From positions 390,001 through 422,000 of the forward strand of contig JANQMZ010000007.1 of NCBI GenBank assembly GCA_028279805.1: 32,000 nt of DNA, given 5' to 3'. Within the stretch, counting starts at the first letter, position 1. Each line of letters starts with the position of its first letter. This DNA comes from an archaeon. Lineage in GTDB: Archaea > Iainarchaeota > Iainarchaeia > Iainarchaeales > JANQMZ01. The translations under genes were made by a program, and so were the position numbers. Shown here one piece after another: positions 1,820-27,860 of this stretch. The notes beneath the pieces are model-generated. The model was not told the origin of the DNA, did no database searches, and worked only from the letters and a program-made list of their open reading frames with translations.

Positions 1820-1844
1820 AAAAAGCTAATATAGGCGTTTTTTT

Positions 1845-2741: not shown

Positions 2742-2779
2742 AATGTGCCGCCGTAGATGAATCACACAAATTCTTGGAC

Positions 2780-2895: not shown

Positions 2896-2967
2896 GGCCC
2901 TGTGGTGTAATGGATAGCATAAAAGCTTGCGGAGCTTTTGACTCGGGTTCGACTCCCGGCGGGGTCA
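2896..2967 (+). tRNA. tRNA-Arg (anticodon GCG)
   Basis: Hand-folded 72-nt cloverleaf. Acceptor GGCCCTG/CGGGGTC has 2 G-U pairs. D arm GTGT-AATGGATA-GCAT, anticodon arm AAAGC-TTGCGGA-GCTTT, T arm TCGGG-TTCGACT-CCCGG, discriminator A. Confidence 0.82.
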
Positions 2968-3006
2968 TTCAAAAACATTTTTTAATGCTGAAAACATATT
3001 TTTGGC

Positions 3007-4497: not shown

Positions 4498-4510
4498 CTA
4501 AAATGATACC

Positions 4511-5164
4511 ATGTACATTGTAATTGTTGGAGCGAACGAATTGGGAAAATTTTTAGCCAAAACATTAATTGAAGAAAACCATGATGTTGTTGTAATTGAC
4601 AAAAACAAGGACGTGTGCGAACAAGTTGCCAATGAACTTGACTTGGTTTGTTCTAATGGAGATGCAACAGAACAAAAAGTTTTGGAAAATGCAGGAATAA
4701 AAGAATCAGATGCCGTTGTTTCCTTAACAACACATGATGAAACTAATATGGTTGTTTCTTTGCTGGCAAAAGAACTGGGTGCAAAAACTGTTGCTGCAAG
4801 ATTGGGCAAAACTGATTATAATGAAAAAGTTTTGGAAAGATTAGGCATAGACATTGTTGTTCATCCTGAAGCAGCTGAAGCTGGTTATATTGCTGAAATG
4901 ATTACAAAACCGGAATTACTGGATTTGGCTTTTATTTCAAAAGGCTCGGCTGAAATAATGGAAGTAAAAATTGGGGAAAAAAGCAAAATTGTCGGAAAAA
5001 AAGTTTCAGAACTGGGTTTGCCAGAGGGCTGTTCTTTGATTGCGATTCTTGAAAATGATGATATTTTAATTCCAAAACCTGATTCAATAATAAAAAAAGG
5101 CCAAAAAGTTTTAATTATTGCAAAAAGAGATGTGGTTGAGGCAGTCAGAAAAGCTATTAATTAA
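4511..5164 (+). CDS. trkA: TrkA K+ uptake regulatory subunit (RCK: TrkA-N plus TrkA-C)
   Basis: MYIVIVGANELGKFLAKTL...VVVID Rossmann motif, a C-terminal TrkA-C-like domain, 217 aa. Confidence 0.9.
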   Translation: MYIVIVGANELGKFLAKTLIEENHDVVVIDKNKDVCEQVANELDLVCSNGDATEQKVLENAGIKESDAVVSLTTHDETNMVVSLLAKELGAKTVAARLGKTDYNEKVLERLGIDIVVHPEAAEAGYIAEMITKPELLDLAFISKGSAEIMEVKIGEKSKIVGKKVSELGLPEGCSLIAILENDDILIPKPDSIIKKGQKVLIIAKRDVVEAVRKAIN

Positions 5165-5176
5165 CAGCGAATCAAT

Positions 5177-6448
5177 TTAATTTTTTAAAAGATTCCAGCC
5201 TTTTAACAAAACATGATTAAACCAATATCCTGCTAAAAGAGATGTGAATATTGCGGTTAAAACAAGAGTCATGAAAAATGTCTGATTAATTATTCCCACA
5301 TCAAAAGCAATTGTGGCAAGAACTATTCCCGGCCCGCCTCTTGTGTTCATTGCAACAGCAAAATTAAAACTGGAAAGCCAGTCATTTTTAGTTAATCTTG
5401 CAGCAATTAATGTTCCGATTGACGCAAACGCTGTTGTAAATGCTAAAAAACCTAAAAAGAACATTAAATCAAAATGATGAATTAAATCCAGTCTTAAACC
5501 GACAACTGCAAAATATATGGGAACAAAAAATGCAAGAGAAATTTCTTTAATGTGAGTTCTGGCAGTTTCAAATTTTTCATTAGGCAGCCTTCCAACAAGT
5601 ATTCCCGCTAAAAAAGCTCCGAAAACAATGTTTACATTTAAGATGCTTGCTATTGCCGCAAAAAAGAAACATATAAACAAAATATATCCCGGAACGGATG
5701 ATTTAATCAAAACATTTATTCTCAAATTATTAATAAAGCTGATTAATTTAGGCATTAACAAAAGAGCAACAAAAAAGAAACCTAATGTAATAAACACTGT
5801 GAATATAATGCCGGATGTGGATACTGCTTCTGCACTTACAATTCCTGTGGCTATAGCCAGAGCCACCCACAATATTATGTCCTGAATTGTGGCAGTGGCT
5901 AAAACAATTTTTGCAAAACGCGTATTTATTATTTTTAAATCCATAAAAATTCTTGAAATAACCGGAATTGATGTTACAGCAACAGCTATTGCAATGACAA
6001 TTGTTAACGCGAGCATGTTATTTTTAACACCTAAAAAAGGAGAAAAGTCGTAAAAATTTGGAGCAAACCATCCTGCAAGAAACGGAATTAAAGTTGCACC
6101 AACCAAAAGAGCAAAAATGGTTTTTTTATCACCACTATTAAACGATTTTTGAATTTCAAAACCGGATATGAACATTAACAATATTAATCCGAACCAGTAA
6201 ATCACAGATATTAATTTTCCTTCAGAGGGAAATGCGTTAAAAATCCAGTTATATGTTTCCGGGAAAAAAAAACCCAAAATGCTCGGGCCCAAAATTAGCC
6301 CTCCTACAATCTCCCCAATAACTTTTGGTATTTTAAATCGCTGAAACAAATAACCAAAACTATGTGCCGAAATTAAAAGCAATACTATTGCAAAAAAAAA
6401 TCTTGTTAATTCCATATTACTTAAAGTAATGAGATTATCCACAACCAT
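5177..6448 (-). CDS. Cation:proton antiporter (CPA2, Kef/NapA-like Na+/K+:H+ exchanger)
   Basis: 423-aa protein with about 12 TM segments and an N-terminal pattern (KIPKVIGEIVGGLILGPSILG) typical of the Na_H_Exchanger family. Confidence 0.8.
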   Translation of the reverse strand: MVVDNLITLSNMELTRFFFAIVLLLISAHSFGYLFQRFKIPKVIGEIVGGLILGPSILGFFFPETYNWIFNAFPSEGKLISVIYWFGLILLMFISGFEIQKSFNSGDKKTIFALLVGATLIPFLAGWFAPNFYDFSPFLGVKNNMLALTIVIAIAVAVTSIPVISRIFMDLKIINTRFAKIVLATATIQDIILWVALAIATGIVSAEAVSTSGIIFTVFITLGFFFVALLLMPKLISFINNLRINVLIKSSVPGYILFICFFFAAIASILNVNIVFGAFLAGILVGRLPNEKFETARTHIKEISLAFFVPIYFAVVGLRLDLIHHFDLMFFLGFLAFTTAFASIGTLIAARLTKNDWLSSFNFAVAMNTRGGPGIVLATIAFDVGIINQTFFMTLVLTAIFTSLLAGYWFNHVLLKGWNLLKN

Positions 6449-6676
6449 AACATTCTTCCTTTTCCATTTACATTATTTCTTTATTTGATTTGTTTATTAA
6501 TATGCATTCATCTTAAGAGCTAAAAACAAAAACTATTTAAATGCTCAAAACAGGATTATAATAGTGGGTTAAAATGAGAAGGGATTTACTTCACAAATAA
6601 CGCTTTTTCTTACGATTTGATTAGCCCGCGGAACAGTTTTAAACAATTTTCCTTAATTTTAGCTTTAGCTTTCAAT

Positions 6677-6752
6677 GGCGGCGGTAGTGTAATGGTTAGC
6701 ATAGAAGACTGTGGATCTTCTGGTTCGGGTTCAAATCCCGGCCGCGGCCCCA
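6677..6752 (+). tRNA. tRNA-His (anticodon GTG) with encoded G-1 and encoded 3' CCA
   Basis: G-1 at 6677. Acceptor GCGGCGG/CCGCGGC has one G3-G70 mismatch by my fold. Anticodon arm GAAGA-CTGTGGA-TCTTC, T arm TCGGG-TTCAAAT-CCCGG, discriminator C6749, then CCA 6750-6752. Confidence 0.82.
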
Positions 6753-6771
6753 TTTTCAACAGGTGTTTAAA

Positions 6772-8013
6772 ATGAAAACAGTTAAAGGAATGCGGGATTT
6801 TTTACAAAACAAGGCTGCTAAAAAAAAATATTTAGAAAACCTGTGCAAGGATTCATTTGAAAAATACGGCTTTCAGCCAATGGAAACACCAATTGTTGAA
6901 GAATTGGATTTACTGGTAAAAAAAGGTTCAGCCGGTGAAGAAATTGAAAAAGAAATTTATTCATTCAAAGACAAAGCTGAAAGAAAACTAGGTTTAAGGT
7001 TTGATTTGACTGTTCCACTGGCAAGAATTGTTGCAACAAATCTGCAATTAAAAATGCCTTTTAAAAGATATCAAATTGGACGCGTTTACAGGTATGACCG
7101 GCCGCAGGCTAAAAGGTATAGAGAATTTACTCAGGCTGATGTGGACATAATCGGAGTGAAAAGTGTTCTGGCTGACTTTGAATGTGTTGCATTAGCAGTT
7201 GAAATAATGAAAAAACTTGAAACAGAATTTTTTATTAGCTTAAATTCAAGAAAATTATTGGAGGAATTGGCAAAATTATCAGGAGTAAAAGAAAATCAAA
7301 TTGTTGACTGTTTCAGAATTTTGGATAAACTTGATAAAATTGGTTTGGACAGAGTAAAAAAAGAATTAAAACAAAAACACATTAATTCTGAAATATTAAA
7401 ACTGGTTAAAGAAACAAATCTGGATAAAATTGAAACAAAATTAAAACAAAAAAATTTATCGCTGGAAGGGTTAAATGAATTGAAAGAATTAATGGATTTG
7501 TTAAAAGAAAATTCTCTTGATGATTTTGTAAAAATTGATTTAAGTCTGGCAAGAGGTTTGGCTTATTACACCGGAATTGTTTTTGAAGTTAAACTGAAAA
7601 AAGGACCGAGTGTTGCTGCCGGAGGCCGGTATGATAATTTGATTGAATCTTTTGGCGGAAAACCAACAGCTGCTGTTGGAATCAGCTTTGGAATTGACAG
7701 GCTTTTGGATTCAGTGGAAGAAAAAATTGATTTGAAGAATTCAGTGCAATTTTTTGTTATTAGTGTTGGAAACACTCAAAAAGAATCATTAAAAATTGCC
7801 CAAATGTTAAGGGAGAAAGGAGCAAAAGTGGAAATTGATTTGCTTCAAAGAGGTTTGTCAAAAAATCTTGATTATGCTGATAAAAAAGGCATTCCTTTTG
7901 CTTTGATTTTAGGAGAAAAAGAATTAAAACAAAAAAAAGTTTTAATGAAAAACCTTGAATCCGGGGAAGAAAATCTGGTTAATTTAAATGACGTTTTTTT
8001 AGGAATGCGATGA
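6772..8013 (+). CDS. hisS: Histidyl-tRNA synthetase (class II)
   Basis: VKGMRDF N-terminus, LRFDLTVPLARIV (HisA-like motif), RYREFTQADVDIIG (motif 2 region), GGRYDNL and GISFGIDRL (motif 3 region), C-terminal anticodon-binding domain. I prefer ATG 6772 over the track's GTG 6763, because AGGTG at 6760-6764 sits 7 nt upstream of it. Confidence 0.9.
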   Translation: MKTVKGMRDFLQNKAAKKKYLENLCKDSFEKYGFQPMETPIVEELDLLVKKGSAGEEIEKEIYSFKDKAERKLGLRFDLTVPLARIVATNLQLKMPFKRYQIGRVYRYDRPQAKRYREFTQADVDIIGVKSVLADFECVALAVEIMKKLETEFFISLNSRKLLEELAKLSGVKENQIVDCFRILDKLDKIGLDRVKKELKQKHINSEILKLVKETNLDKIETKLKQKNLSLEGLNELKELMDLLKENSLDDFVKIDLSLARGLAYYTGIVFEVKLKKGPSVAAGGRYDNLIESFGGKPTAAVGISFGIDRLLDSVEEKIDLKNSVQFFVISVGNTQKESLKIAQMLREKGAKVEIDLLQRGLSKNLDYADKKGIPFALILGEKELKQKKVLMKNLESGEENLVNLNDVFLGMR

Positions 8014-8014
8014 T

Positions 8015-8086
8015 GCCTCGGTGGCTTAGTGGTATAGCACTGCATTGGTAATGCAGAGGTCGCGGGTTCAACTCCCGCTCGAGGCT
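8015..8086 (+). tRNA. tRNA-Thr (anticodon GGT)
   Basis: 72-nt cloverleaf: acceptor GCCTCGG/TCGAGGC, anticodon arm CTGCA-TTGGTAA-TGCAG, T arm GCGGG-TTCAACT-CCCGC. It starts 1 nt after the hisS stop codon. Confidence 0.9.
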
Positions 8087-8096
8087 TTCCCAAACA

Positions 8097-8104
8097 TTTA
8101 AAAT
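8097..8104 (+). promoter_or_regulatory. TATA box (TTTAAAAT) for rpiA, consistent with a leaderless or near-leaderless mRNA
   Basis: An AT-rich octamer about 24-27 nt upstream of ATG 8124, the classical archaeal TATA-to-TSS spacing. Confidence 0.45.
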
Positions 8105-8123
8105 AAAAAAAAGCAATATATGA

Positions 8124-8807
8124 ATGATTTTTATGCAAGAATCGTTAGTTGATTTTTTGGTTGAAAAATATATTCAAAAAGAACAAGTTTTGGGAATCGG
8201 AACGTCAAACGAAGCTGAAAAATTTATTAAAAGCATAGCTTTGAAAGATTTGAATGTAAAAATTGTTCCCACATCAACAAAATTAGCGGGAATAATTGCT
8301 TCTCTTGGTTTAGATGTTTGCGGAATATCGGAGCAGGAAATTGATGTTGCAATTGAATTTATTGACCAGATAGATGAACATTTTAGTTTTATTAAAAACA
8401 ATTCACATTCCCTTGTCAGAGACAAAATGATCGGACAGTCAGCTTCAGAATTGATTGTTGTGACTGATGAAAAAAATTTTGTTAAAAGATTAAAAGGAAT
8501 TGTTCCGGTTGAAATTACTCCTTTTGGCTGGAAAAGAACTTTAATTCAACTTGAAAATTTTGGAAATGCAAAATTGAAAGAAGAGTCCGGCAATCCTGTT
8601 AAAACTGAAACCGGGAATTTTTTTGTTGATGTTAATATTGCTGATATTTTTTCATTAGAAGAATTAGAACAAGAATTAAAGAATATTCCCGGCGTGTTGG
8701 AAACCGGTTTGTTTATTGGTTATGCTGACAGAATTGTTTTAACTGATGGAAAAGGAATAAAAGTTAAGTCAAGAATGATGCCTGATTTTTCAAAAGCAAA
8801 AACTTAA
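8124..8807 (+). CDS. rpiA: Ribose-5-phosphate isomerase A (divergent)
   Basis: 227 aa with the RpiA layout: LGIGTSNEA (GxGTGST-like), VPTS, IDVAIEFIDQID (DGADE-like region), PVEITPFGW, and a C-terminal GVLETGLF motif. Confidence 0.7.
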   Translation: MIFMQESLVDFLVEKYIQKEQVLGIGTSNEAEKFIKSIALKDLNVKIVPTSTKLAGIIASLGLDVCGISEQEIDVAIEFIDQIDEHFSFIKNNSHSLVRDKMIGQSASELIVVTDEKNFVKRLKGIVPVEITPFGWKRTLIQLENFGNAKLKEESGNPVKTETGNFFVDVNIADIFSLEELEQELKNIPGVLETGLFIGYADRIVLTDGKGIKVKSRMMPDFSKAKT

Positions 8808-8846
8808 AGCTTTCTAACCAAAATTATTAAGAAAAAACACTAAATT

Positions 8847-8921
8847 GCCGCAGTAGCTCAGCCTGGTTAGAGCGCTAGACTCATAATCTAGAGGTCGTGG
8901 GTTCAGATCCCACCTGCGGCA
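8847..8921 (+). tRNA. tRNA with CAT anticodon (elongator Met, or Ile2 if C34 is modified)
   Basis: 75-nt cloverleaf: acceptor GCCGCAG/CTGCGGC, D arm GCTC-AGCCTGGTTA-GAGC, anticodon arm CTAGA-CTCATAA-TCTAG, T arm GTGGG-TTCAGAT-CCCAC. It lacks the three G-C pairs of an initiator anticodon stem. Confidence 0.9.
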
Positions 8922-9106
8922 CTAATTTTAAAAAAAAAGAAATCAATCTCAGAACTCATAATCGTCTTCATTTTCTATTGAATCAGCGCTCAGCCTGTTC
9001 TTCATAGATTGATTTTAATACATACGCAAATAAAATTAATATATTTGCCCTTTCATCGGAAAACCGCTTTGAAAATTCTTATTTAAAAATAAAACCAAAT
9101 AATAAC

Positions 9107-9799
9107 ATGTATGCTAGGGGAAAAAATGGTTGGTTTTCAATTAAAACAGCAAACAATCTTATAGAAAAACCAACTGAAGAATTAGCCGAATTTATTGGAA
9201 TTATGCTTGGCGATGGAAACATTCACGAAATAGATGGCAAAGGAATTTACCAAGTAAGGATAGCAGGACATAAAATTGATGATGCAGCATATTTTGATTA
9301 TTTAGAAAAATTGTTTATCAATCTTTTTGGAAAAAAACCTTCTTTTTATAAGTCAAAAAATAGAAAAACAATCTATCTTACGAAACAAAGCAAAGATGTT
9401 GTACACACTCTAAAACATTTTGGATTAATTCCAGGAAATAAAACAAAAAACAATTGTGGAATCCCAAGTTGGATTTTTTCCAATAATAAATTTTTGAAAG
9501 CTTGTGTAAAAGGACTTATAGATACTGACGGAAGTGTTTATCCCAAAACAAAAAAACACAAAACGCCTACAATTTACTTTACAAGCGCAATTCCAGAACT
9601 AAGACAAGATTTTAAAAAAGCTCTTCAGAACTTAAATTATAAATGCTCAAAATGGGTTAAAAAATCAGGAAAGGCAGCACAAGATTGTACAATTGGAGAT
9701 AGAGCAGAAGTTTTGAGGTACTACAGAGAAATAGGTTTTTCAAATCCAAAACATGAAAAAAGATTCAAAAAATTTTGGAAACTCGCCCTTGTAGTGTAG
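9107..9799 (+). CDS. Free-standing double-motif LAGLIDADG homing endonuclease
   Basis: Two LAGLIDADG motifs, FIGIMLGDGNIH and KGLIDTDGSVYP, about 105 residues apart in a basic 230-aa protein. The last 15 nt overlap tRNA-Glu. Confidence 0.85.
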   Translation: MYARGKNGWFSIKTANNLIEKPTEELAEFIGIMLGDGNIHEIDGKGIYQVRIAGHKIDDAAYFDYLEKLFINLFGKKPSFYKSKNRKTIYLTKQSKDVVHTLKHFGLIPGNKTKNNCGIPSWIFSNNKFLKACVKGLIDTDGSVYPKTKKHKTPTIYFTSAIPELRQDFKKALQNLNYKCSKWVKKSGKAAQDCTIGDRAEVLRYYREIGFSNPKHEKRFKKFWKLALVV

Positions 9800-9859
9800 C
9801 CTGGTCAAGCACACAGGGTTCTCAACCCTGTAACCCGGGTTCAAATCCCGGCAAGGGCA
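9785..9859 (+). tRNA. tRNA-Glu (anticodon CTC)
   Basis: 75-nt cloverleaf: acceptor GCCCTTG/CAAGGGC, D arm GTGT-AGCCTGGTCAA-GCAC, anticodon arm CAGGG-TTCTCAA-CCCTG, T arm CCGGG-TTCAAAT-CCCGG. Confidence 0.9.
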
Positions 9860-9870
9860 TTGGTGATAAA

Positions 9871-10182
9871 ATGAAAGAATTGCAGGAAAAAATCAAACAG
9901 TTTTGCAAAGAACATGGATTGGAACATAAAGCAGAACACCATGCATTGGATTTGGCTTCAGAAACTGGTGAAATTGCAAAAGAAATACTGAAAATGAGTG
10001 ACTATGGCAGAAAAAAACTGGAAAAAAATGAAAACATTGAATCAGAATTAGGCGATGCTTTATATTCTTTGATTACAATTGCAAATTATTTTGATGTTAA
10101 TCTTGAAAAAGCTTTGGAACTGGTTTTGGAAAAATATGAAAAAAGACTAAAAAAAGGTTCAGCAGGCTCTGAAAACGATTAA
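9871..10182 (+). CDS. MazG-like nucleotide pyrophosphohydrolase (small all-alpha NTP-PPase)
   Basis: The track ORF 9775-10182 is trimmed to ATG 9871 (GGTGA at 9862-9866), because the upstream part is tRNA-Glu. Motifs ETGEIAKEILK and ELGDALYSLITIANYFDVNLEKAL match the MazG EExxE/D pattern. Confidence 0.72.
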   Translation: MKELQEKIKQFCKEHGLEHKAEHHALDLASETGEIAKEILKMSDYGRKKLEKNENIESELGDALYSLITIANYFDVNLEKALELVLEKYEKRLKKGSAGSEND

Positions 10183-10187
10183 AAAGC

Positions 10188-10195
10188 TATTTAAA
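10188..10195 (+). promoter_or_regulatory. TATA box (TATTTAAA) driving the hairpin module plus tRNA-Thr(UGU) transcript
   Basis: The box is centred about 26 nt upstream of 10218-10220, the first bases of the GC-rich module. Confidence 0.5.
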
Positions 10196-10219
10196 CAATT
10201 ACAAAAACAATTAATAGAA

Positions 10220-10325
10220 ACGCGGTGTTCCGCGTGAGAACATCCGCCTTCGGCAGGATGTCCGAAGCAAAGCTTCGGAAGTGCCACTGAAAGTGGCACG
10301 CGGAGTAACCGTACGCAATCGGTTC
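10220..10325 (+). ncRNA. GC-rich multi-hairpin module, copy 2 (apparent 5' leader of tRNA-Thr-UGU)
   Basis: Hairpins: ACGCGG/CCGCGT 10220-10235, ATCCGCC/GGC(A)GGAT 10242-10259, TCCGAAGC/GCTTCGGA 10261-10279, GTGCCACT/AGTGGCAC 10281-10299, AACCG/CGGTT 10307-10324. Alternative closing helix: CCGCGTG 10230-10236 with CACGCGG 10297-10303. Confidence 0.55.
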
Positions 10326-10398
10326 GCCTCGGTAGCTCAGTGGCTAGAGCACTTGCCTTGTAAGCAGGGGGTCGCGAGTTCGAATCTCGCTCGAGGCT
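10326..10398 (+). tRNA. tRNA-Thr (anticodon TGT)
   Basis: 73-nt cloverleaf: acceptor GCCTCGG/TCGAGGC (identical to the GGT isoacceptor), anticodon arm CTTGC-CTTGTAA-GCAGG, T arm GCGAG-TTCGAAT-CTCGC. A T-run follows. Confidence 0.9.
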
Positions 10399-10451
10399 TT
10401 TTTATCAAAAAAGTTTTAAAGGAAAAAAAGAATTAAGTTAAAGGTGATTTA

Positions 10452-19030: not shown

Positions 19031-20482
19031 ATGGACTTACAAAAAAGAACACTTTTAATTTTACTAATTTTACTGATTTTCGGAGCTTTTTTAAGATTTT
19101 ATGGTTTGGGAGAACAAAGTTTTTGGTTGGATGAGGCAATAACCACAAATGCAGCAAAAGCATTAATTGAAACTGGAACTCCGACATTTGATTCAGGGCA
19201 TGTTTATAATCAAAGAATTCTGAATACTTTTTTAATCGGATTATCAATGCAATTTTTTGGTTTTAATGAAATGGCTGCAAGAATTCCCGCAGTTTTGTTT
19301 GGCTTATTGACAATATTAATTGTTTATTTTTTTGTTAAAAGCATTTCAAATGAAAAACTGGCTTTAATGTCAGGCTTTTTTGTAACATTTGTAACATTGT
19401 TTATTGGCTGGTCAAGGCAGGCCAGAATGTATCAGCAATTGCAGTTTTTTTATCTGGCTTCACTTTTTCTGTTTTACAAGTATACTGAAACAAAAAAACC
19501 GGAATATTTGATTTTAACAATTTTAAGTACAATAGCAGCAATTTTTTCGCATGAATTTGCTTATTTGCTTTTGATAATTTATGCTTTTTATTTTGTCATA
19601 ATAAAAGGAATTGAATGGCATAAAAAGAGGAGATTAAAATTAGAATTAAAACCGGTTTTGATTGCCGGAATTCTTTTGGCTGGATTGTTTTTTCTTGGTT
19701 TGAATCAGGCAATTGAATATGTTTTACAGAACAGGGTTAACTATTTCTGGATTTATTTAAATTATTTGCATAATGAATTTTTTGTATTTTTTTACTTAAG
19801 TCTGACCGGAATGGTTATTGCTTTAAGGGAAAAAATTAAAACAAGTTTAATGGTTTTGGCATTTATTATTCCTTTTGTTGTTTTATCAAGCTCTGTGTTG
19901 TTGTTACATTTTCGTTACCTGTTTTTTATTTTGCCTTTAATGTTTGTTTTTTCAGCTTATTCAATTTTTTATTTTTATGAATTGTTAAAAAACAAGTTTG
20001 ATTTAAAAATTGCAAAAATTTTTGGAATAATTGTTTTTGTTTTAATTGTTTTTGCTTCAAATGCTTTTACTTTTGTTCCTCAAAATGAATATTATTTGGA
20101 CAGATTTTCTCCCCAGCCGGATTTTAAAAAAGCTTATTCTTTTCTGGAAGAAAACAATGCTCAAATTGTGATTGATTCGTGGCCTGCTGTTGGAAAGCAT
20201 TTCAGGGGAAAATCAGATTACTGGATTTATTTTAACATTACCGGCGTAAAAAAAGACCTTTTAATTGATGATTCTCATGAAATTTATGCAAATGCTGTTG
20301 CTTTGAGAGATAAAAAAGAATTAGAAGAATTTTTGGAACAGGATGAAAAAGTGTGGCTTTTGATGGATAATACTGCATGGATTAAGTTGTCGCCGGAGCA
20401 AAAAAATGTTATTCAGAATCAAATGGTGGAAATTAAAGAATTTGTTAATGACAAGTTCTGGATTAAAATTTATTCAACGTGA
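19031..20482 (+). CDS. GT-C fold glycosyltransferase (ArnT/PMT_2-like, polyprenyl-phosphate-sugar dependent)
   Basis: The N-terminus LRFYGLGEQSFWLDEAITTNAAKAL is typical of family 39/83 enzymes. About 11 TM helices plus a C-terminal soluble domain. TATTTAAAT at about 19014-19022 suggests a leaderless mRNA. Confidence 0.75.
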   Translation: MDLQKRTLLILLILLIFGAFLRFYGLGEQSFWLDEAITTNAAKALIETGTPTFDSGHVYNQRILNTFLIGLSMQFFGFNEMAARIPAVLFGLLTILIVYFFVKSISNEKLALMSGFFVTFVTLFIGWSRQARMYQQLQFFYLASLFLFYKYTETKKPEYLILTILSTIAAIFSHEFAYLLLIIYAFYFVIIKGIEWHKKRRLKLELKPVLIAGILLAGLFFLGLNQAIEYVLQNRVNYFWIYLNYLHNEFFVFFYLSLTGMVIALREKIKTSLMVLAFIIPFVVLSSSVLLLHFRYLFFILPLMFVFSAYSIFYFYELLKNKFDLKIAKIFGIIVFVLIVFASNAFTFVPQNEYYLDRFSPQPDFKKAYSFLEENNAQIVIDSWPAVGKHFRGKSDYWIYFNITGVKKDLLIDDSHEIYANAVALRDKKELEEFLEQDEKVWLLMDNTAWIKLSPEQKNVIQNQMVEIKEFVNDKFWIKIYST

Positions 20483-20487
20483 TTAAA

Positions 20488-22416
20488 ATGAAACAAACAA
20501 TGAAAGAAACAATAAAACTGTTATTGCCGGCTTTAATTATTTTTTATTTTTTTGTTTTAATTGCAAGAAATTTTAACCCTTTTTTATTGCCAAACATTGA
20601 GGACAGAATTTTTTTAGCTTTAATTCCGACACTTTTTTTGTTTGTAATAATTTATTTGCCTGAATATATTGCAAAAAGCCGGAGTAAAATTGTTAACAAT
20701 GTTTTAAATTTTCTGAAAAAAGTTCAGCAAAATAAACAATTAAAAACAGTTGTTACAAATTTTTTCTTTTTTCTTTTGCTGGTGCTTTTAGTTGATGCTT
20801 ATTTTTTGTTTTTGGAATCTTTTACAGTTATTCTGGCAATAATTACCGCTTTTTTAGGAATAATTACTTTCTGGTTAAACAAGCATTTGCTGGCTACAGA
20901 GCATGAATGGATTGTTGATGACAGGATTTATAAAATTGGCTTTATTGCAATTATTTTGCTGAATTTGTTTTTCACTTTTAACGGTTTTACTGATATCAGC
21001 ATTAATCCTGATGCACAGCAATGGTTAGGACGCGGAGTTAATTATTTTTCTTATTTTTTCGGAGAACAAATTCAACAGGAACTGATTTCCTTTTATGATT
21101 TGGATTTTTGGGAGCTAACCAATACTCCTGGTTTAACAAGTGCTTTTTTAGTTGGTTTGAGCTTGTATTTGTCTTATTTGTTTAATTTTTCAACTGACCC
21201 TGTTTTTGTTGCAAGATTGCCTTTTGCTTTATTGTCAATTGTTTTTATTATTGTGTTTTATTTTTTAAGCCAGAAATTTGTTGATAAAAAAACAAGTTTT
21301 TTTGCAACAGTTTTTTTGTCATTATCTCCTTTTTTTCAGTTTTTAAGCAGGGAAATTCATCTGGATTTTTTACTGGGTTTTTTTATTTTTTTAACAGTGT
21401 ACTTTTATTATGCTTACCAGGAAAAACATGACAACAAGAATTTGATTTTATTTTCATTATTTTTTGGACTGGCGATTTTAACAAAAGTTACCGCGTTATT
21501 TTTAGTGCCATTAATTGGTTTTATTGAAATTACAAAAATTTCAAAAACAAAAAAAATCAACCTAAAACACTATTTTATTGCAGCTTTTGTGGTTTTGGGC
21601 CTGATTGTTGCCGCCTGGCCGGGTTTAATTCAGAATCCTGTTGAAAAAAGCCTTGATTTGGTTGGTTACACCGGGGACATTTCCACCTCCCAAACTCACA
21701 GAGGTTTTTGGTTCGGAACACTTGGCTCTTTGCCGTTTTATTATTATGCTTTTATTTTGCTGATAAAACTGCCTTTGATTTTTTTAGCGTTTTTGTTACT
21801 GGGTTCTTTGCGTTCTTTGAAAAAAAATTATTTTTTAATTCCGGCATTGTTTATGATTTTAACTTCAATCAGCACCAAAATGGCTGACCGTTATCTGATA
21901 ACCGTGTGGCCTTTTTTGCTTTTAATAATAGGAACAGGGTTTGTGACATTAACAGAATTTATTCGTGCAAGATTTAATTTAAAAATGGCAAAAATGTTAA
22001 TGGCTTTAACACTTGTTTTTGTTTTGTTAAATATTTTAATTGTTGTGCCAAATTACGGATTGTATTATAATTCTTTAATCGGCAAAACGGAAAATGCTCA
22101 GAATTATATCAGGTTCGGCTGGGGAGAAGATTCAAAAAAAGCTGCAGAATTTGTAAATGAAAAATATGGCAATGCAAGCATTGCGGCTTTTACTTATTCT
22201 TATGATACAGGTTATTATTCTCATGGAAATACAATAGCTGCGCTGCATCCTGGCTGGGAAGACCAGGATTTATTGCTGGTTTCAGTTTCCAAAAGGGTTT
22301 TATTGCATGAAAATCATCCTGTGCAGAAAATAATAAATGAAAATGAGCCGATTGATGTTATTTTTGTTCAGGGAATTCCTATGACAGAAGTTTATGATTT
22401 AAAAAATATTAATTAG
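20488..22416 (+). CDS. Second GT-C fold glycosyltransferase (PMT_2-like), 640+ aa
   Basis: Polytopic protein. The segment ARLPFALLSIVFIIVFYFLSQKF...LSPFFQFLSREIHLD resembles ArnT/PMT_2 core helices. I prefer ATG 20488 to the track's GTG 20479, which overlaps the upstream stop. Confidence 0.62.
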   Translation: MKQTMKETIKLLLPALIIFYFFVLIARNFNPFLLPNIEDRIFLALIPTLFLFVIIYLPEYIAKSRSKIVNNVLNFLKKVQQNKQLKTVVTNFFFFLLLVLLVDAYFLFLESFTVILAIITAFLGIITFWLNKHLLATEHEWIVDDRIYKIGFIAIILLNLFFTFNGFTDISINPDAQQWLGRGVNYFSYFFGEQIQQELISFYDLDFWELTNTPGLTSAFLVGLSLYLSYLFNFSTDPVFVARLPFALLSIVFIIVFYFLSQKFVDKKTSFFATVFLSLSPFFQFLSREIHLDFLLGFFIFLTVYFYYAYQEKHDNKNLILFSLFFGLAILTKVTALFLVPLIGFIEITKISKTKKINLKHYFIAAFVVLGLIVAAWPGLIQNPVEKSLDLVGYTGDISTSQTHRGFWFGTLGSLPFYYYAFILLIKLPLIFLAFLLLGSLRSLKKNYFLIPALFMILTSISTKMADRYLITVWPFLLLIIGTGFVTLTEFIRARFNLKMAKMLMALTLVFVLLNILIVVPNYGLYYNSLIGKTENAQNYIRFGWGEDSKKAAEFVNEKYGNASIAAFTYSYDTGYYSHGNTIAALHPGWEDQDLLLVSVSKRVLLHENHPVQKIINENEPIDVIFVQGIPMTEVYDLKNIN

Positions 22417-23176
22417 ATTTGATTTGCATAAAAGGAATTGTTCCCAATGCTCTGTAAATCAGTCCAACAAAATGTAAAATAAATGAAGCTAAAACAGCCT
22501 GCTCAATACTAATTGCAAAAAGCATTCCGAACTGAATAAATAAAAATTCCCTTATTCCCAGACCACTGAATGATATTGGCAAAACTGTTAAAATTATTAC
22601 AACAGGAACCAGTAAGAGCAGAAAAAAATAATTAATTTCTATTCCGACTGCCAAAAAAGAAATCTGGTAAGTGAATGCAACCAAAAACAAATACAATAAA
22701 GCAAAAATTGAATGTTTAAATAATTCTTTTTTTGAAACAAATGCCTGTTTTAAAAAAGAAAATTTTCCGAAAAAATTTTCAAACAAATAAAACAATTGAA
22801 TGGATATAAATACAAATATTAAAATTAAAGGAATTAAAAACAAAAAATCAAAATCAAAATAATACAATAAAAAGGCGATAAAACCGGCTTCTAAATACCA
22901 TAAAAAGGAAAAAACCCTGTCAATCATTGAGGACAAAAAAGCGTCTTTTTTGTTTTTATGGGAAACAGCCTTATAACTTTCACTTCCCAATGCTCCTAAA
23001 AAAAACAAATTAACAAAATCAGCTGCCCAGTAAAGTTTTAATAATTTCTTGAATTCAATCGGGTTTGATTTGTTTAAAAAAATATGCCATTTTTTTGACA
23101 TTAAAAAAAGTTTTGGAAAAATAAGAACAAACAAAAAAACCAAAAATAAAGGGTTAACATTTTGAATGTTTGCCAA
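22409..23176 (-). CDS. UPF0104 / LPG-synthase-TM (flippase-like) membrane protein, start uncertain
   Basis: LPISFSGLGIREF signature and multiple TM helices. The frame stays open upstream of the TTG at 23176. Confidence 0.62.
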   Translation of the reverse strand: MANIQNVNPLFLVFLFVLIFPKLFLMSKKWHIFLNKSNPIEFKKLLKLYWAADFVNLFFLGALGSESYKAVSHKNKKDAFLSSMIDRVFSFLWYLEAGFIAFLLYYFDFDFLFLIPLILIFVFISIQLFYLFENFFGKFSFLKQAFVSKKELFKHSIFALLYLFLVAFTYQISFLAVGIEINYFFLLLLVPVVIILTVLPISFSGLGIREFLFIQFGMLFAISIEQAVLASFILHFVGLIYRALGTIPFMQIKSN

Positions 23177-23285
23177 AAATTCGTCTAAATTAATCTGGTT
23201 AAAAACCAGCCATAAAATTGAAAAACTGAAAATTATTTTAATCCAGAAAGAATTTTTTTTAAAAAAATCAATAAATTTTTGAATG

Positions 23286-24509
23286 CTACCACCTTTGAAT
23301 CAGTTTTTTAAAATATTTTTCAGCATACCATGCAACAATAAACTGCGGAATTAATCTTGATTTTTTAAAAAACTGCAACAAGTTCCAGAAAATTTTATTA
23401 AACAATGTTTTTGTTTCAGTTTTTTTCTTAACTTTTTCAAAATTTTTCAAAGCAAAATTTTCAGCAAACTTTCTCGGAAAATCTTTTGAGTTTTCACATA
23501 ATTTTAACATTTTTTGAATTCTTTTGCTTAAATAAGCAAAATACATGCTTTCTATTTTATGTTTTGATACTCCGGTAAAATCTATTGCATTTCCCAGCCT
23601 TCCGCCACAATTTGAAACAAAAAATGGCACACTTAAAATTTTTCTTTTATGTAAAATTTTTTCAGCTTTCCAGGTAACAGGACTGTTGGAACCGGGGCAA
23701 ACAATTTTTGCTTTTATTTTTGAAGCATTTTTTTCATTAATTGAATAACCTCGGCCGCACGGAACAACCATGTCGCATTTTAATTCTAATAATTTCAATA
23801 ACGGAATTTTTTTCCAGTTTCCTTTTTGCAAAACAAATTTGTTTCCGTGTTTTTTTTGAAGTTGTAAAATTTTTTCAATATCTAAACCGTTTTCATTGTA
23901 AATGGCTCCATGATGAGTTGATAAGGCAATTATTTTTGAACCTTTTTTGTGAAAAAGTTTTGCTGCATTTAATCCAACACTTCCAAATCCTTCAATTGCA
24001 ACTGAAGCATTTTCCAGTTCAATATTTTTCAGTTTGGCTGATTCAATTGCTGCAATAAAAACAGATAAAGCGGTAAAATAACCAGAAATTCCTTTTGTTC
24101 TTTTAACGCTTTTTTCTCCAATTGCGTGCATTGTTGAGTCTACTTCCTTTTGGCTTGTGTTCATATCTGCGCCAATGCCGTAAACACGCTTTTTAACAAG
24201 AGGTTTTGCTATTTCCGCAAAACGTTTTAACAAAAACATTTTTTTTTCTTTTGAAATTTTTTCAATGTCTGCAACAATTGCAGATTTTGCTCCACCTTTG
24301 GGCAAACCCAAAAATCCGCTTTTTAAAGTCATTCCTCTGGCCAAATCCTTAACTTCATCAAGGTTGGCATCTTTTATCATTCTCAAGCCGCCGGCACTTT
24401 GGCTGTTAACAGATGAATCAATTACAATGAATCCTTTTAATCCTGCAGAAGAGTCCTGAATTAAACAATACAATTGTCCGTCTAATGATTTAAATACCGG
24501 GTCAGTCAT
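23286..24509 (-). CDS. Glu/Leu/Phe/Val (ELFV) family amino-acid dehydrogenase homolog
   Basis: SAGGLRM, MTLKSGFLGLPKGGAKSAI (catalytic Lys region), Rossmann IEGFGSVG, VVPCGRG, PGSNSP. Confidence 0.8.
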   Translation of the reverse strand: MTDPVFKSLDGQLYCLIQDSSAGLKGFIVIDSSVNSQSAGGLRMIKDANLDEVKDLARGMTLKSGFLGLPKGGAKSAIVADIEKISKEKKMFLLKRFAEIAKPLVKKRVYGIGADMNTSQKEVDSTMHAIGEKSVKRTKGISGYFTALSVFIAAIESAKLKNIELENASVAIEGFGSVGLNAAKLFHKKGSKIIALSTHHGAIYNENGLDIEKILQLQKKHGNKFVLQKGNWKKIPLLKLLELKCDMVVPCGRGYSINEKNASKIKAKIVCPGSNSPVTWKAEKILHKRKILSVPFFVSNCGGRLGNAIDFTGVSKHKIESMYFAYLSKRIQKMLKLCENSKDFPRKFAENFALKNFEKVKKKTETKTLFNKIFWNLLQFFKKSRLIPQFIVAWYAEKYFKKLIQRW

Positions 24510-25789
24510 TTTTTCACCTTTGAACGCACAGTGCGATATTTTCCTGTTTTTTCTCTTGGAATTTTTTCAACAATATCAATAATTAAATCCGTTTCATTAT
24601 TAACCCTTTTTAAAATTTTTTTTCGGATGTCTTTTTCTGATTTTTTTGAGAATTCCTTGGTTGTTCTTATTTTTATTCTTATCAGGTTTTTTTTCTCCTG
24701 AATTATTTGATATTGTTTTACTCCTAAAGCATCTTCAAGAATAAAAGTTAAGGAATAAGGGGAAATAATTTTGCCTGAAGGGAGCAAAATAAAATCGGTG
24801 GATCTTCCGATTAAAACACCCATTAATGGGAAGGATCTGCCGCAAGAACATTTTTCGTCCAACGGTTTTCCTACATCGCCAACAGTATAACGGATTAAAG
24901 GCATTGCTTTATTGTAAAGTGTTGTGCAAACAATTTCCCCTTCCTGGTTTGCATTAACATGTTTGCTGTTTTTAACAAATTCAACAAAAAAAGAATCAGA
25001 ATTAATATGATAATGTTTTCTTTCTTTGCACTGCCAGCTGATTTCCTTTAATTCAACCAGACCATAAATATCATAAAGAGGTGCATTAAAAATCTTTTCA
25101 ATTAATTTTCTTTGTTTTAATGATAACATTTCAGCTGTTGAGAAAAGCATTTTTGGTTTAACATAATTAATATTGTTTTTTTCAAGAAACTCAGCTATTT
25201 TGAAAAGAAATGAAGGCATTGATTCAATTATGGTAGGCTTAAAATGTTTATAGAAAAAAACTGGCTCTTCCAAATTTTCAAAAATTGAAAAATGTTTAAG
25301 CCTCGAAAGCTTGTCCATTAATGAAAATTTTTGTTTTTCTCCTCTGCCCTTTTTTTTACCGGTAGCAGCACTAATTACCGCTATTTTATCAAAAACACTT
25401 AAACCGCACGCCCTCCTTGTTCTAAGCTTTAACAAATATTTTCCATAAATCCATGAATCTCTGTCAAAAAACGATTCAACCGGTTCACCTGTTGAGCCGG
25501 TGGTTTTTCCCTTATGCAATTCATTTAATGAATAATTTTGAGAAATAACTGGAAAATTTTTTCTCAATTCTTCTTTTGTTGTAACCGGAATTTTCAACAT
25601 GTCTTTTTTTGTTTTAATGTCATTCGGGGTTATGCCTGCTTTTTGAAATTTTTTTCTGTAAAAAGGAACGGTTTCATAAGCATGATTTAAAATTTGTTTT
25701 AATTTTTTCCACTGCAGTTCTTCCAGTTCTTCCGGTTTTAGCCACTGGTTTCTGCTTAACTTATAATATTGCCACAAATGCTTAATCAT
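24506..25789 (-). CDS. PaaK/CapK/F390-synthetase-like adenylate-forming ligase
   Basis: N-terminus ...ELQWKKLKQILNHAYETVPFYRKKFQKAGITPNDIKTKKDMLKIPVTTKEELR, and an AMP motif TTGSTGEPV. Confidence 0.8.
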   Translation of the reverse strand: MIKHLWQYYKLSRNQWLKPEELEELQWKKLKQILNHAYETVPFYRKKFQKAGITPNDIKTKKDMLKIPVTTKEELRKNFPVISQNYSLNELHKGKTTGSTGEPVESFFDRDSWIYGKYLLKLRTRRACGLSVFDKIAVISAATGKKKGRGEKQKFSLMDKLSRLKHFSIFENLEEPVFFYKHFKPTIIESMPSFLFKIAEFLEKNNINYVKPKMLFSTAEMLSLKQRKLIEKIFNAPLYDIYGLVELKEISWQCKERKHYHINSDSFFVEFVKNSKHVNANQEGEIVCTTLYNKAMPLIRYTVGDVGKPLDEKCSCGRSFPLMGVLIGRSTDFILLPSGKIISPYSLTFILEDALGVKQYQIIQEKKNLIRIKIRTTKEFSKKSEKDIRKKILKRVNNETDLIIDIVEKIPREKTGKYRTVRSKVKK

Positions 25790-26898
25790 TTTTTCACCTG
25801 AGAATAAACTTGCAAATATTTTTTGGACACGTTTTGCCAGGACATTTTTTCAGCAAGCTTTCTTGAATTATTTGAATGTCTTTGCAACAAAGCAGAATTT
25901 TCAATGTATTTTAAAAGAGCTTTTTCAATTTGCTTTGAATTCTGCTTTTCAACAATAAAGCCGTTATTATGAATTAATTCTGCCGCACCGGTTTTTGTTG
26001 TAATTACTGGCAAGCCGGAAGCTAATGCTTCCTGTGTAACATTAGCCAAAGCTTCTTCAATTGAAGGCAGGACAAAAACGCTTGATTGTGAATAAATTTT
26101 ATGAATATTTTTATGTTCAACCATTCCGGTAAAGTTAACATTTTTTGAAATGTTGTTTTGTTTGCAAAATTTTTTTAATTCAGATTCCTGCGGGCCTGAA
26201 CCAACAATTGTTAGTTTAATATTTGAATGTTTTTGTAAAACATTTTTGAATGCTTCAAGTAAAAAAATTAATCCTTTTCTTTCAATTAATCTCCCGACAA
26301 ATAAAACATTAAAATCTTTTTTCCTGCCCGGAGTAAATTCTTTTGAATCAATTCCGTTGTAAATTACTTCAATTTTTTTGTTTGAAGTATTGCGGGCTAA
26401 TTTTTTTAAGTCATTGCTGACAGCAGTAACTGTTTTTGCATTATTCCAGACTATTTTTGATAAAGGTTTGAACAAAATTTTGTCCAAAAATTTTAATCTT
26501 GGATTGTAGCCTGGAACATCTGAACCTCGCAATGCTACAATGTAAGGAACTTGTTTTCTCAGTAAAAAACCGATAATGCCTGAAGGCCAGCCGAACCAGC
26601 AATGGCACAAATCATATTCTTTTTCTTTAACCAGTTTTTTAGCCAAAAAGAAGGCTTTTAGAGTGTATTTTGCTATTTCAAGTATTTTCCAGTAATGAAA
26701 TTGTTTTTTGCCAACATCCAACTTATACATAATAATGTTGTTTGAAAATTTTTCCTGCTTAAATTTGTCAGGGCTTGAAGTAATCAAATCAATCTGCAAG
26801 TTTTTTGATTTTGCAAATTCTTTCAATAAGTAAAAATTTGCGTTGGCAGCGCCCCCCCCTACGGGGGGAAACTCATAGTTGAGCATTAAAATTTTCAT
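25786..26898 (-). CDS. GT4-family (GT-B fold) glycosyltransferase
   Basis: N-terminal FPPVGGGA and a C-terminal EALANVTQEALASGLPVI (E-x7-E) motif. Confidence 0.9.
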   Translation of the reverse strand: MKILMLNYEFPPVGGGAANANFYLLKEFAKSKNLQIDLITSSPDKFKQEKFSNNIIMYKLDVGKKQFHYWKILEIAKYTLKAFFLAKKLVKEKEYDLCHCWFGWPSGIIGFLLRKQVPYIVALRGSDVPGYNPRLKFLDKILFKPLSKIVWNNAKTVTAVSNDLKKLARNTSNKKIEVIYNGIDSKEFTPGRKKDFNVLFVGRLIERKGLIFLLEAFKNVLQKHSNIKLTIVGSGPQESELKKFCKQNNISKNVNFTGMVEHKNIHKIYSQSSVFVLPSIEEALANVTQEALASGLPVITTKTGAAELIHNNGFIVEKQNSKQIEKALLKYIENSALLQRHSNNSRKLAEKMSWQNVSKKYLQVYSQVKK

Positions 26899-26906
26899 AA
26901 AAGCAA

Positions 26907-27839
26907 CTATAAAATTTTTTCAATCGAATAAGGTTTTTGTTTTTTTGTTTGAAAATAATTTTTAATAATAATATCAGCCAAAAAACCAAAAATTATGAAT
27001 TGTATTCCGATTATAACCATTAAAATTGCCAAAAACAAAATTGGCCTGTTAGCCAAACCAATTCCTAAAAAAATTCTTTGATAAGACAAATATAATCCGA
27101 GCAATGTTCCAAGAATTAGTACAGGCAATCCTATTCCTCCAAACAAATGCAAGGGCCTTGTTGCATATTGTGACCAGAATTTAATATTTAGCAAGTCAAG
27201 AAAGCCTTTGTATAATCTTAAAAGGCCATATTTTGTTTTTCCAAATTTTCTCGGCCTGTGATTGACTTTTGTTTCTCCGACTTTGAATCCTTTCCAGGCA
27301 ACCAATGCAGGAATAAATCTGTGAATTTCTCCGAATAATTCAGCGTCTTCCAGTGTTTCTCTCCGGTAAGCTTTCAGGGAACAGCCTGAATCATGGATTT
27401 GCAAGCCTGTCAAACGTTTATGAAGCCAGTTGGATAATAATGATGGTAATTTTTTTGTTGTGGGATCTTTTCTGTCAGCCCTCCAGCCGCTTACAACATC
27501 AAACCCTTTACTCATTTTGCTTAAAAGTTTTGGAATGTCTTTTGGATCGTTTTGCAAGTCACCATCCATTGTAATAATTGTTTTTCCTTTTGAATTGTCA
27601 AAACCTGCTTTCATTGCAGCTGTTTGTCCAAAATTTTTTCTGAATTTAATTATTTTAACAATAGAATTTTGTTTTTTTAATTTTAATAATTCATTAAAAG
27701 TGTTATCGGTTGAACCGTCGTCAACAAAAATTATTTCACTTTTTATTTTTAAGTTTTTTAATGTTTGATTTAATTCTTTGAATAAAATTGAAACATTTTC
27801 CTGTTCGTTGTAAAAAGGAACAACAATTGATAAATCCAT
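26907..27839 (-). CDS. GT2 polyprenyl-phosphate glycosyltransferase (GtrB/ArnC/DPM1-like) with C-terminal TM anchor
   Basis: LSIVVPFYNE, FVDDGSTDNT, MDGDLQNDP, and two C-terminal TM helices. I prefer ATG 27839 (MDLSIVVP) because the TATA box at 27861-27870 predicts a TSS near it. The track start is 27854. Confidence 0.88.
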   Translation of the reverse strand: MDLSIVVPFYNEQENVSILFKELNQTLKNLKIKSEIIFVDDGSTDNTFNELLKLKKQNSIVKIIKFRKNFGQTAAMKAGFDNSKGKTIITMDGDLQNDPKDIPKLLSKMSKGFDVVSGWRADRKDPTTKKLPSLLSNWLHKRLTGLQIHDSGCSLKAYRRETLEDAELFGEIHRFIPALVAWKGFKVGETKVNHRPRKFGKTKYGLLRLYKGFLDLLNIKFWSQYATRPLHLFGGIGLPVLILGTLLGLYLSYQRIFLGIGLANRPILFLAILMVIIGIQFIIFGFLADIIIKNYFQTKKQKPYSIEKIL

Positions 27840-27860
27840 TTTGAATCCCTGCAAAAAAGA

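Follow-up and report, generated by a model that had tools for sequence, protein, structure and literature searches.

Organisation of the operon

We analysed a stretch of 32,000 nucleotides from the genome of an archaeon of the Iainarchaeota (contig JANQMZ010000007.1; G000:C9:390001-422000 in our numbering; below, the window), and in it a pair of genes that encode a CapK/PaaK-like adenylate-forming ligase and a divergent dehydrogenase of the ELFV family, which has the fold of glutamate dehydrogenase (GDH). The genome comprises 876 kb, is 93.7% complete and has a GC content of about 32%; we take its owner to be a DPANN-type archaeon with a small genome. Both genes lie on the minus strand, the ligase at 24506-25789 (427 amino acids, with the Pfam domain CapK_C) and the dehydrogenase at 23286-24509 (407 amino acids, with both ELFV Pfam domains and a pocket of non-glutamate type). 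A preliminary description of this DNA had proposed the two open reading frames (ORFs), their coordinates and their ATGA overlap, and all of these were recovered. The motifs quoted in it were also found, TTGSTGEPV at residues 96-104 of the ligase and GGAK and GFGSVG at residues 72-75 and 174-179 of the dehydrogenase. ORFs of this length with the profile scores given below cannot be of chance origin.

The pair is part of a five-gene operon with the minus-strand order GT2 (glycosyltransferase family 2), GT4, ligase, dehydrogenase and flippase-like gene, and the successive junctions are an 8-nt gap, two overlaps of 4 nt and a spacing of 1 nt. The first gene (26907-27854) encodes a polyprenyl-phosphate glycosyltransferase of 315 amino acids, ArnC/PgfS/AglJ-like, with a hydrophobic C-terminal part; it matched Glycos_transf_2 in Pfam (2.2e-31) and ArnC PRK10714 (2.5e-58), PgfS (3.8e-48) and AglJ (5.6e-22) in NCBIfam, each time below the equivalog cut-off. 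The GT4 glycosyltransferase (25786-26898, 370 amino acids; Glycos_transf_1 4.6e-38 and Glyco_transf_4 4.7e-17 in Pfam) is coupled to the ligase by a 4-nt overlap of its stop with the ligase start. The junction between ligase and dehydrogenase reads AAAAAATGACTGAC, where the ATG of the dehydrogenase (24509-24507) overlaps the TGA of the ligase (24508-24506) in a four-nucleotide ATGA.

The last gene of the operon (22409-23284) encodes a flippase-like membrane protein of the LPG_synthase_TM/UPF0104 type. When translated from the TTG at 23176, it scored 66.6 bits against LPG_synthase_TM over profile positions 27-296; from the ATT at 23284 the score rose to 83.4 bits over positions 2-296. The frame is open to 23299, and no ATG, GTG or TTG that would include the first transmembrane segment is present there. 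Because of the higher score and the longer coverage of the profile, the gene probably starts at the non-canonical ATT 23284, 1 nt past the dehydrogenase stop, and not at TTG 23176. Just downstream of this ATT there is a T7/A8 homopolymer run (about 23263-23249).

Convergent with the operon, on the plus strand, lie two genes for membrane glycosyltransferases of the GT-C type. The first (19031-20482) is PMT_2/ArnT-like (PMT_2 1.6e-14 in Pfam) and the second (20479-22416) matched both PMT_2 (1.7e-15) and PMT (4.2e-10); the 3' end of the latter shares 8 nt with the 3' end of the flippase-like gene. The glycan operon that had been proposed as the setting of the pair is thus borne out by an ArnC/AglJ/PgfS-like GT2, a GT4, an LPG_synthase_TM flippase-like protein and two PMT_2 genes of the GT-C type. 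The sub-cut-off GT2, the LPG_synthase_TM domain and the two PMT_2 genes are candidates for the parts of the three-component polyprenyl-phosphate-sugar scheme (GT2, flippase and GT-C); the GT4 and the tailoring pair are foreign to the classic scheme. Of sequencing runs that contain the window stretch only one is listed, a DNA run from a coral metagenome that the assembly may derive from, and no RNA run is among them.

The dehydrogenase and its substrate pocket

ELFV enzymes are a classic family, and the assignment of the dehydrogenase to it was upheld by scores well over the Pfam cut-offs, 140 bits (1.4e-40; cut-off 23.4) for ELFV_dehydrog (PF00208) and 64.7 bits (9e-18; cut-off 25.3) for ELFV_dehydrog_N (PF02812). 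The best solved relative in HMMER searches was the short hexameric GDH of T. maritima (1b26, 4e-37), whereas solved leucine (LeuDH), phenylalanine and tryptophan dehydrogenases gave 2e-21, 2e-19 and 1e-12, that is, at least 15 orders of magnitude worse. None of the NCBIfam equivalog cut-offs was reached: GdhB_Halo scored 154.5 bits (cut-off 620), GdhA_Arch 142.5 (750) and ScyB 71 (600).

An AlphaFold model, made from an alignment of 32 relatives, had a pLDDT (predicted local distance difference test) of 91.6 and shows the two-domain fold of the hexameric GDHs. The top 50 Foldseek matches to it were GDHs throughout, with TM-scores of 0.72-0.77 over about 385 columns. We had considered the C-terminal ~100 residues, which lie outside the Pfam profile, as a possible membrane-binding extension; this idea was largely dropped, as the model superposes on GDHs over about 385 columns. 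In the model, only the last helix (389-405) is extra compared with GDH. A search for fused forms of the dehydrogenase longer than 714 amino acids found none, which by the tool's own rating is weak evidence.

By the preliminary description, loss of the catalytic residues would have counted against the proposed pairing. These residues are in place, invariant or nearly so: the catalytic K75 in GGAK, the alpha-carboxylate-binding K63 in MTLK 12 residues upstream, the catalytic D115, N275 and the dinucleotide motif G174-x-G176-x-x-G179 are kept by 77-78 of the 78 members of the clade of related dehydrogenases described below. The pocket residues were read from a HMMER alignment to the T. maritima GDH together with the 32-sequence alignment, and were mapped to what we take to be the corresponding positions in the C. 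symbiosum (K89, Ser380) and LeuDH numbering. As controls of this mapping, the K/A/V/S signature of canonical GDHs was recovered for the genome's own GDH (L004) and for ten of 11 ELFV genes of relatives from the same order, the eleventh reading K/G/V/S.

At the same four positions the dehydrogenase has A39, G113, R304 and N307. The lysine that binds the gamma-carboxyl group of glutamate (K89 in C. symbiosum) is replaced by Ala39, and lysine does not occur at this position in any of the 78 clade members (C 41, R 11, H 7, Y 6, A 3, S 3), while the Ser380 position, Asn307 here, is occupied by Gly, Asn or Ser across the clade. With its catalytic residues kept and the glutamate-binding lysine lost, and with K/A/V/S recovered in the mapping controls, the protein is a probably active amino-acid dehydrogenase and is not a glutamate dehydrogenase. 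The second ELFV gene of the genome (G000:C9:428.6-429.6 kb) is a canonical GDH. Compared with the short hexameric GDHs (1b26 and the genome's own), the dehydrogenase has the fold, the GGxK lysine, the alpha-carboxylate lysine, the aspartate and the dinucleotide motif in common; it differs in its sequence (28-33% identical), in an N-terminus shortened by about 30 residues, in an additional conserved helix at the C-terminus, in the change of the gamma-carboxyl lysine to Ala (mostly Cys in the clade) and of Ser380 to Asn or Gly, and in the location of the genes in glycan loci and not in nitrogen metabolism.

The phylogenetic placement of the dehydrogenase that had been suggested was made against GDHs and one BCKDH-linked enzyme (L106). 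The pocket of the latter is I/G/V/A, and that of LeuDH is of the hydrophobic L/A/V/V type; both are unlike the A/G/R/N found here. The BCKDH-linked reference, a 367-amino-acid ELFV dehydrogenase on the Leisingera aquaemixtae plasmid NZ_CP041158.1 (region L106:5684-10050), directly follows genes for 2-oxoacid dehydrogenase E1-alpha, E1-beta and E2, a classic catabolic context that contrasts with the glycan loci of the clade. Arg304 was considered as a clue to an anionic substrate and was rejected, as it is found solely in the window's protein among the 78 clade members.

The adenylate-forming ligase

The ligase, too, belongs where the preliminary description had put it, with a match of 1.9e-36 to solved PaaK 4r1l (3.7e-29 to 2y27) and the domain CapK_C (PF27533.1), which is listed in precomputed annotations for the ligase and for 117 of 119 other listed homologues. 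In our ligase alignment (A2) the conserved motifs are the TSGSTG loop, YGxxE, PLIRY, CxCGR and a C-terminal GK (K417); invariant are the TSGSTG loop, E220, D240/G243/E246, R300 and K417. Judged from the sequence, the adenylation motifs are thus intact, including the C-terminal catalytic lysine. The adenylate-forming fold and motifs are common to the ligase and PaaK. In contrast to PaaK, the ligase stays far under the equivalog cut-offs of the NCBIfam PaaK models (E-values of about 1e-42, with 146 and 145.5 bits against cut-offs of 700 and 646), carries the CapK_C domain and has a glycan setting: no paa genes were found near it and its neighbours are glycosyltransferases. It is the sole CapK/PaaK-like gene of the genome. 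Its solved relatives comprise PaaK, ligases of the NatL2/AjiA1 type and 2-hydroxyisobutyryl-CoA synthetase.

Recurrence of the pair in other genomes

We scanned one genome per species, 185,579 genomes altogether, and found 334 places with related dehydrogenases. These form a distinct clade of proteins of about 400 amino acids that spans at least 15 bacterial and archaeal phyla, including the candidate phyla radiation (CPR); its carriers include Chloroflexota, Ignavibacteriota, Bacteroidota, Acidobacteriota, Thermodesulfobacteriota, Nitrospirota, Omnitrophota, Verrucomicrobiota, Gemmatimonadota, Bacillota, CPR phyla, Methanosarcinales and Bathyarchaeota. Neighbourhoods were counted in 80 of the 334 loci with 8-kb flanks, where a CapK-like gene was defined by an E-value < 1e-20 against a hidden Markov model and an adjacent gene as one on the same strand at a distance of at most 60 nt. 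A CapK-like gene was present within 8 kb of the dehydrogenase in 40 of the 80 loci and was directly adjacent in 21 (ten upstream, 11 downstream). In all of the five genomes checked, the top CapK-like match was the one beside the dehydrogenase, and in three of them (2.4-5.2 Mb) it was the only CapK-like gene. It is clear that the pairing recurs non-randomly across phyla, far above chance.

More than one CapK lineage is represented among the adjacent ligases: that of the window clusters with the upstream-type partners of archaea and a CPR bacterium, and the partners in Ignavibacteriota, Bacteroidota and Omnitrophota form a different, downstream-type lineage; the association therefore arose or persisted repeatedly. 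In a quick IQ-TREE phylogeny of the dehydrogenases, the window's protein was placed near the base, beside a well-supported clade in which nine of 11 members are CapK-adjacent.

The pairing is also not absent from the most closely related loci, which by the preliminary description would have marked the adjacency as accidental: three of the four closest ligase homologues have an ELFV gene, whole or as a remnant, next to them. Both genes are present at the P0126/P0006 locus and at the P0127 locus. The closest homologue of all, P0125 (52% identity; Methanofastidiosia JBHIDS010000017.1), is directly followed by a 75-amino-acid ORF (L086:5279-5530) that matches the N-terminus of the dehydrogenase (E 4e-14) and appears to be a truncated dehydrogenase remnant. 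The fourth locus, P0128, has GT4-CapK without a dehydrogenase. A GT4 gene precedes P0125, P0126 and P0128, and from the contents of the P0125-P0128 loci we regard GT4-CapK as the core and the dehydrogenase as an add-on.

Among 60 genomes of same-order relatives, none carried this dehydrogenase paralogue; their ELFV matches were canonical GDHs with no CapK neighbour within 1.5-kb flanks. The module was probably acquired together with the glycan locus. Several short canonical GDH (K/A/V/S) matches in the relatives (G001:C1:434660-435763, G013:C6:38132-39208, G049:C20:24531-25646 and others) contain one to three in-frame stops (TAA or TGA); they could be pseudogenes, matches running past the gene end, or assembly errors.

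Wider neighbourhoods of the dehydrogenase clade

At least 41 of the 80 loci are set among genes that can be recognised as polysaccharide genes, including those for UDP-sugar dehydrogenase, heparinase II/III-like proteins, Wzc, Wza, Wzx, priming transferase, GT2, GT4 and sulfotransferase. The view of the preliminary description that ELFV enzymes are not normally members of glycosylation operons has to be qualified, as this clade is habitually found in glycan loci. In the nearest bacterial clade the genes are ordered GT4, ELFV, CapK, heparinase-like, UGDH, GT4, PGT, similar to the portion of the V. cholerae exopolysaccharide (VPS) pathway that deals with the uronic acid.

In 41 of the 80 loci we found an S-adenosylmethionine (SAM) methyltransferase of roughly 274 amino acids, often directly beside the dehydrogenase. 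A larger cassette was present in 22 loci and consists of nitroreductase-fold, pyridoxal-phosphate (PLP)-dependent, HMGL-like and B12-radical-SAM genes, with or without a SPASM radical-SAM gene. Its carriers include the bacterial polysaccharide loci L036, L017, L026, L039, L072, L020, L021, L046 and L047, in which the PLP gene is PALP-like and the SAM methyltransferase comes last. The cassette looks like a pathway to a C-methylated or branched non-proteinogenic amino acid; we know of no pathway of such a type. GlmT and MppJ are 2-oxo-acid C-methyltransferases of natural-product pathways to beta-methyl amino acids, and the methyltransferase in the 41 loci suggests a similar deaminate, methylate and re-aminate chemistry, a likeness of logic. 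The window's operon differs from such loci in that the methyltransferase is missing.

AsnB-like and Mur-ligase-like enzymes also occur as neighbours of the dehydrogenase. Mur-ligase-like (Mur_ligase_M plus Mur_ligase_C, about 434 amino acids, sometimes duplicated) or AsnB-like genes were found at L039:12716-14020, L032, L020 and L037, with no adjacent CapK-like gene. The catalytic cysteine is present in four of the five AsnB-like neighbours, while the fifth (L043, an over-long ORF call of 851 amino acids) has none in its first 80 residues. With CapK-like, Mur-ligase-like and AsnB-like partners, the clade thus has partners from at least three unrelated groups of ATP-dependent enzymes that form, or probably form, amides. 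Taken together, the neighbours point to synthesis of a custom amino acid and formation of a glycan amide, and the clade looks like a glycan-tailoring amino-acid dehydrogenase, which would complete a custom, often methylated amino acid in the rich loci and act with the ligase alone in minimal ones such as that of the window.

Known systems

Comparable in layout are the Agl N-glycosylation pathway of Haloferax volcanii (AglJ, AglP, AglR, AglS) and, in bacteria, the three-component Arn and Pgf/Gtr systems. In these a GT2 charges polyprenyl phosphate, tailoring of the sugar takes place on the lipid at the cytoplasmic face of the membrane, and flipping and transfer by a GT-C-type enzyme follow. In such on-lipid tailoring AglP methyl-esterifies a hexuronic acid and ArnD deformylates. 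The window's operon would follow the same logic of GT2, tailoring, flip and GT-C; its tailoring enzymes would instead be a CapK-like ligase and a dehydrogenase.

For the ligase the closest precedent is VpsH of V. cholerae, a PaaK/CapK-like enzyme which is required for the addition of glycine to lipid-linked L-GulNAcA before further glycosyl transfer, as found by genetics and liquid chromatography-mass spectrometry (mBio 2026; PMC13463779). With this work, of 2026, it is to our knowledge the first CapK-like enzyme with a genetic assignment. VpsH likewise belongs to a glycan locus, and we liken it to the window's ligase by the shared family description. The two systems differ in that the vps cluster as published contains no ELFV dehydrogenase and draws glycine from the cellular pool (PMC13463779), whereas the window's operon has the dehydrogenase. 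Moreover, VPS is made by a bacterial, Wzx/Wzy-dependent system with undecaprenyl diphosphate, while the system of the window is archaeal, with a polyprenyl-phosphate, flippase and GT-C layout. In full-text literature searches we found no paper on the combination of ELFV and CapK genes in glycan loci, nor on this dehydrogenase clade. What is known is a CapK-like glycan amino-acid ligase with one genetic precedent; what is new is a dedicated GDH-fold dehydrogenase alongside it.

Proposed pathway

Most likely, the two enzymes form a module for the synthesis of an amino acid and its attachment to a sugar. In the full scheme, to which we give a probability of about one half, the five genes would be an archaeal surface-glycan operon with an amino-acid decoration, in which the amino acid comes from the dehydrogenase and is linked by the ligase, as an amide, to a lipid-linked uronic acid. 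The GT2 would load a sugar onto polyprenyl (dolichyl) phosphate, and the GT4 would add a second sugar, probably a hexuronic acid. From a 2-oxo acid, ammonia and NAD(P)H the ELFV dehydrogenase would produce an amino acid other than glutamate. The carboxylate adenylated by the ligase would most probably be that at C6 of the uronic acid on the lipid-linked intermediate, and the ligase would then form the amide with this amino acid. The decorated lipid-linked glycan would then be carried over the membrane by the flippase-like protein and be handed to an acceptor by the two GT-C enzymes. We infer the order of the steps, which acid is activated and which amino acid is used, and that the dehydrogenase acts as its supplier, and the mechanism as a whole is modelled by analogy on VpsH and on Agl/Arn on-lipid tailoring before flipping.

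That a CapK-type enzyme might amidate a uronic acid had been offered as an example in the preliminary description. The idea has gained a genetic precedent in VpsH (PMC13463779) and accords with two genes for UDP-sugar 6-dehydrogenases in this genome; for the window's ligase the chemistry stays conjectural. The two genes belong to the UDP-glucose/GDP-mannose dehydrogenase family (G000:C9:92887-93426 and 105361-105906, in open frames of 428 and 442 amino acids) and lie at most 13 kb apart, about 300 kb upstream of the window. They are probably a second glycan or nucleotide-sugar locus, which could supply uronic-acid donors.

Several points weigh against this scheme. In half of the sampled dehydrogenase loci the 8-kb flanks contain no CapK-like gene. 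Ligases of this lineage can do without the dehydrogenase, as P0128 is without one and P0125 has only a fragment. There is no UDP-sugar dehydrogenase inside the window's operon, the genome's two being about 300 kb away. A proteinogenic amino acid would need no dedicated dehydrogenase, and the operon is otherwise without sign of an unusual precursor. The pocket residues differ between the clades and none of the 78 but the window's protein has R304, so no substrate can be named. Finally, the gene identities, their coupling, the conservation of residues and the comparative statistics are observations, whereas the chemistry of every step is deduced.

Alternative explanations

The polarity of the reaction might be reversed. 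The ligase would then activate the alpha-carboxyl group of the amino (or 2-oxo) acid made by the dehydrogenase, and an N-aminoacyl (or N-oxoacyl) amino sugar would be formed and not a uronamide. The usual substrates of PaaK-family enzymes are small carboxylic acids in free form, and PaaK, NatL2/AjiA1-type ligases and a 2-hydroxyisobutyryl-CoA synthetase are the solved relatives of the ligase; N-aminoacyl amino sugars are known constituents of glycans, and the comparative evidence for a module of dehydrogenase and ligase fits both polarities equally. On the other side, VpsH, the only CapK-like glycan enzyme studied genetically, adds glycine to a uronic acid, which implies that the sugar carboxyl is activated (PMC13463779). 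In the nearest bacterial clade, moreover, UDP-sugar dehydrogenase genes go with the pair, and the window's operon has no aminotransferase for the synthesis of an amino sugar. We regard the reversed polarity as possible, if rather unlikely.

The dehydrogenase could also have a less conventional role, acting on a substrate that is tethered (a 2-oxo or amino acid whose side chain is already attached to the lipid-linked sugar) or generating ammonia for a ligase that has no glutaminase domain of its own. The small residues that replace the glutamate-binding lysine and serine would leave room for a large distal group. We know of no ELFV enzyme with either a tethered-substrate or an ammonia-partner role, and this idea seems to us distinctly unlikely.

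The more definite form of the ammonia proposal, in which the dehydrogenase deaminates an amino acid beside the ligase and the ammonia is used for a primary uronamide, in place of the glutaminase domain of an AsnB-type enzyme, is improbable. It would suit a ligase without a glutaminase domain and the translational coupling of the two genes; however, a pocket that varies between clades would be unexpected if any abundant amino acid sufficed, the frequent methyltransferase, radical-SAM and aldolase-type neighbours suggest that a special amino acid is being built, and four of the five AsnB-like neighbours have the catalytic cysteine and hence need no donor.

A small-molecule product (an N-acyl amino acid, an oxazolone-type compound or another secondary metabolite), with the glycosylation neighbours being incidental, would be in keeping with the nitroreductase-fold genes of some cassettes in the dehydrogenase clade. 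We consider it very improbable, since the window's operon has neither a nitroreductase nor an E1-like gene, translational coupling joins the pair to the GT4 on one side and to the flippase-like gene on the other, the closest loci retain GT4-CapK(-ELFV), and polysaccharide genes occur around at least 41 of the 80 loci. That an ordinary nitrogen-metabolism enzyme merely landed in the operon is hardly credible: the lack of the paralogue in the 60 same-order relatives does speak for a recent acquisition, but a canonical GDH is already present in the genome, the glutamate-binding lysine is missing, and the pairing recurs across phyla far above chance.

Implications of the proposed pathway

When microbial surface polysaccharides are decorated with amino acids, their charge and their antigenic and mechanical properties change, and the enzymes that install these decorations are mostly uncharacterised. 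Here a widespread clade of GDH-fold dehydrogenases has its home in glycan loci, coupled to putatively amide-forming ligases, and reaches into a very small archaeal genome. If the proposed decoration of a lipid-linked uronic acid is right, the clade would be a sequence marker for glycans modified with amino acids, probably non-proteinogenic ones, and would hold new substrate specificities in an enzyme family much used in biocatalysis; it would also mean that an organism with a reduced genome devotes two coupled genes to surface decoration.

Other features of the window

Positions 1-10400 of the window contain six tRNA genes (Arg-GCG, His-GTG, Thr-GGT, Met-CAT, Glu-CTC and Thr-TGT) among housekeeping genes. 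The tRNA-Arg gene lies within a 90-amino-acid ORF and the tRNA-Glu gene overlaps one of 135 amino acids, and both ORFs are probably spurious. The housekeeping genes encode PolB (family-B DNA polymerase), methionine aminopeptidase, TrkH/TrkA, HisRS and ribose-5-phosphate isomerase.

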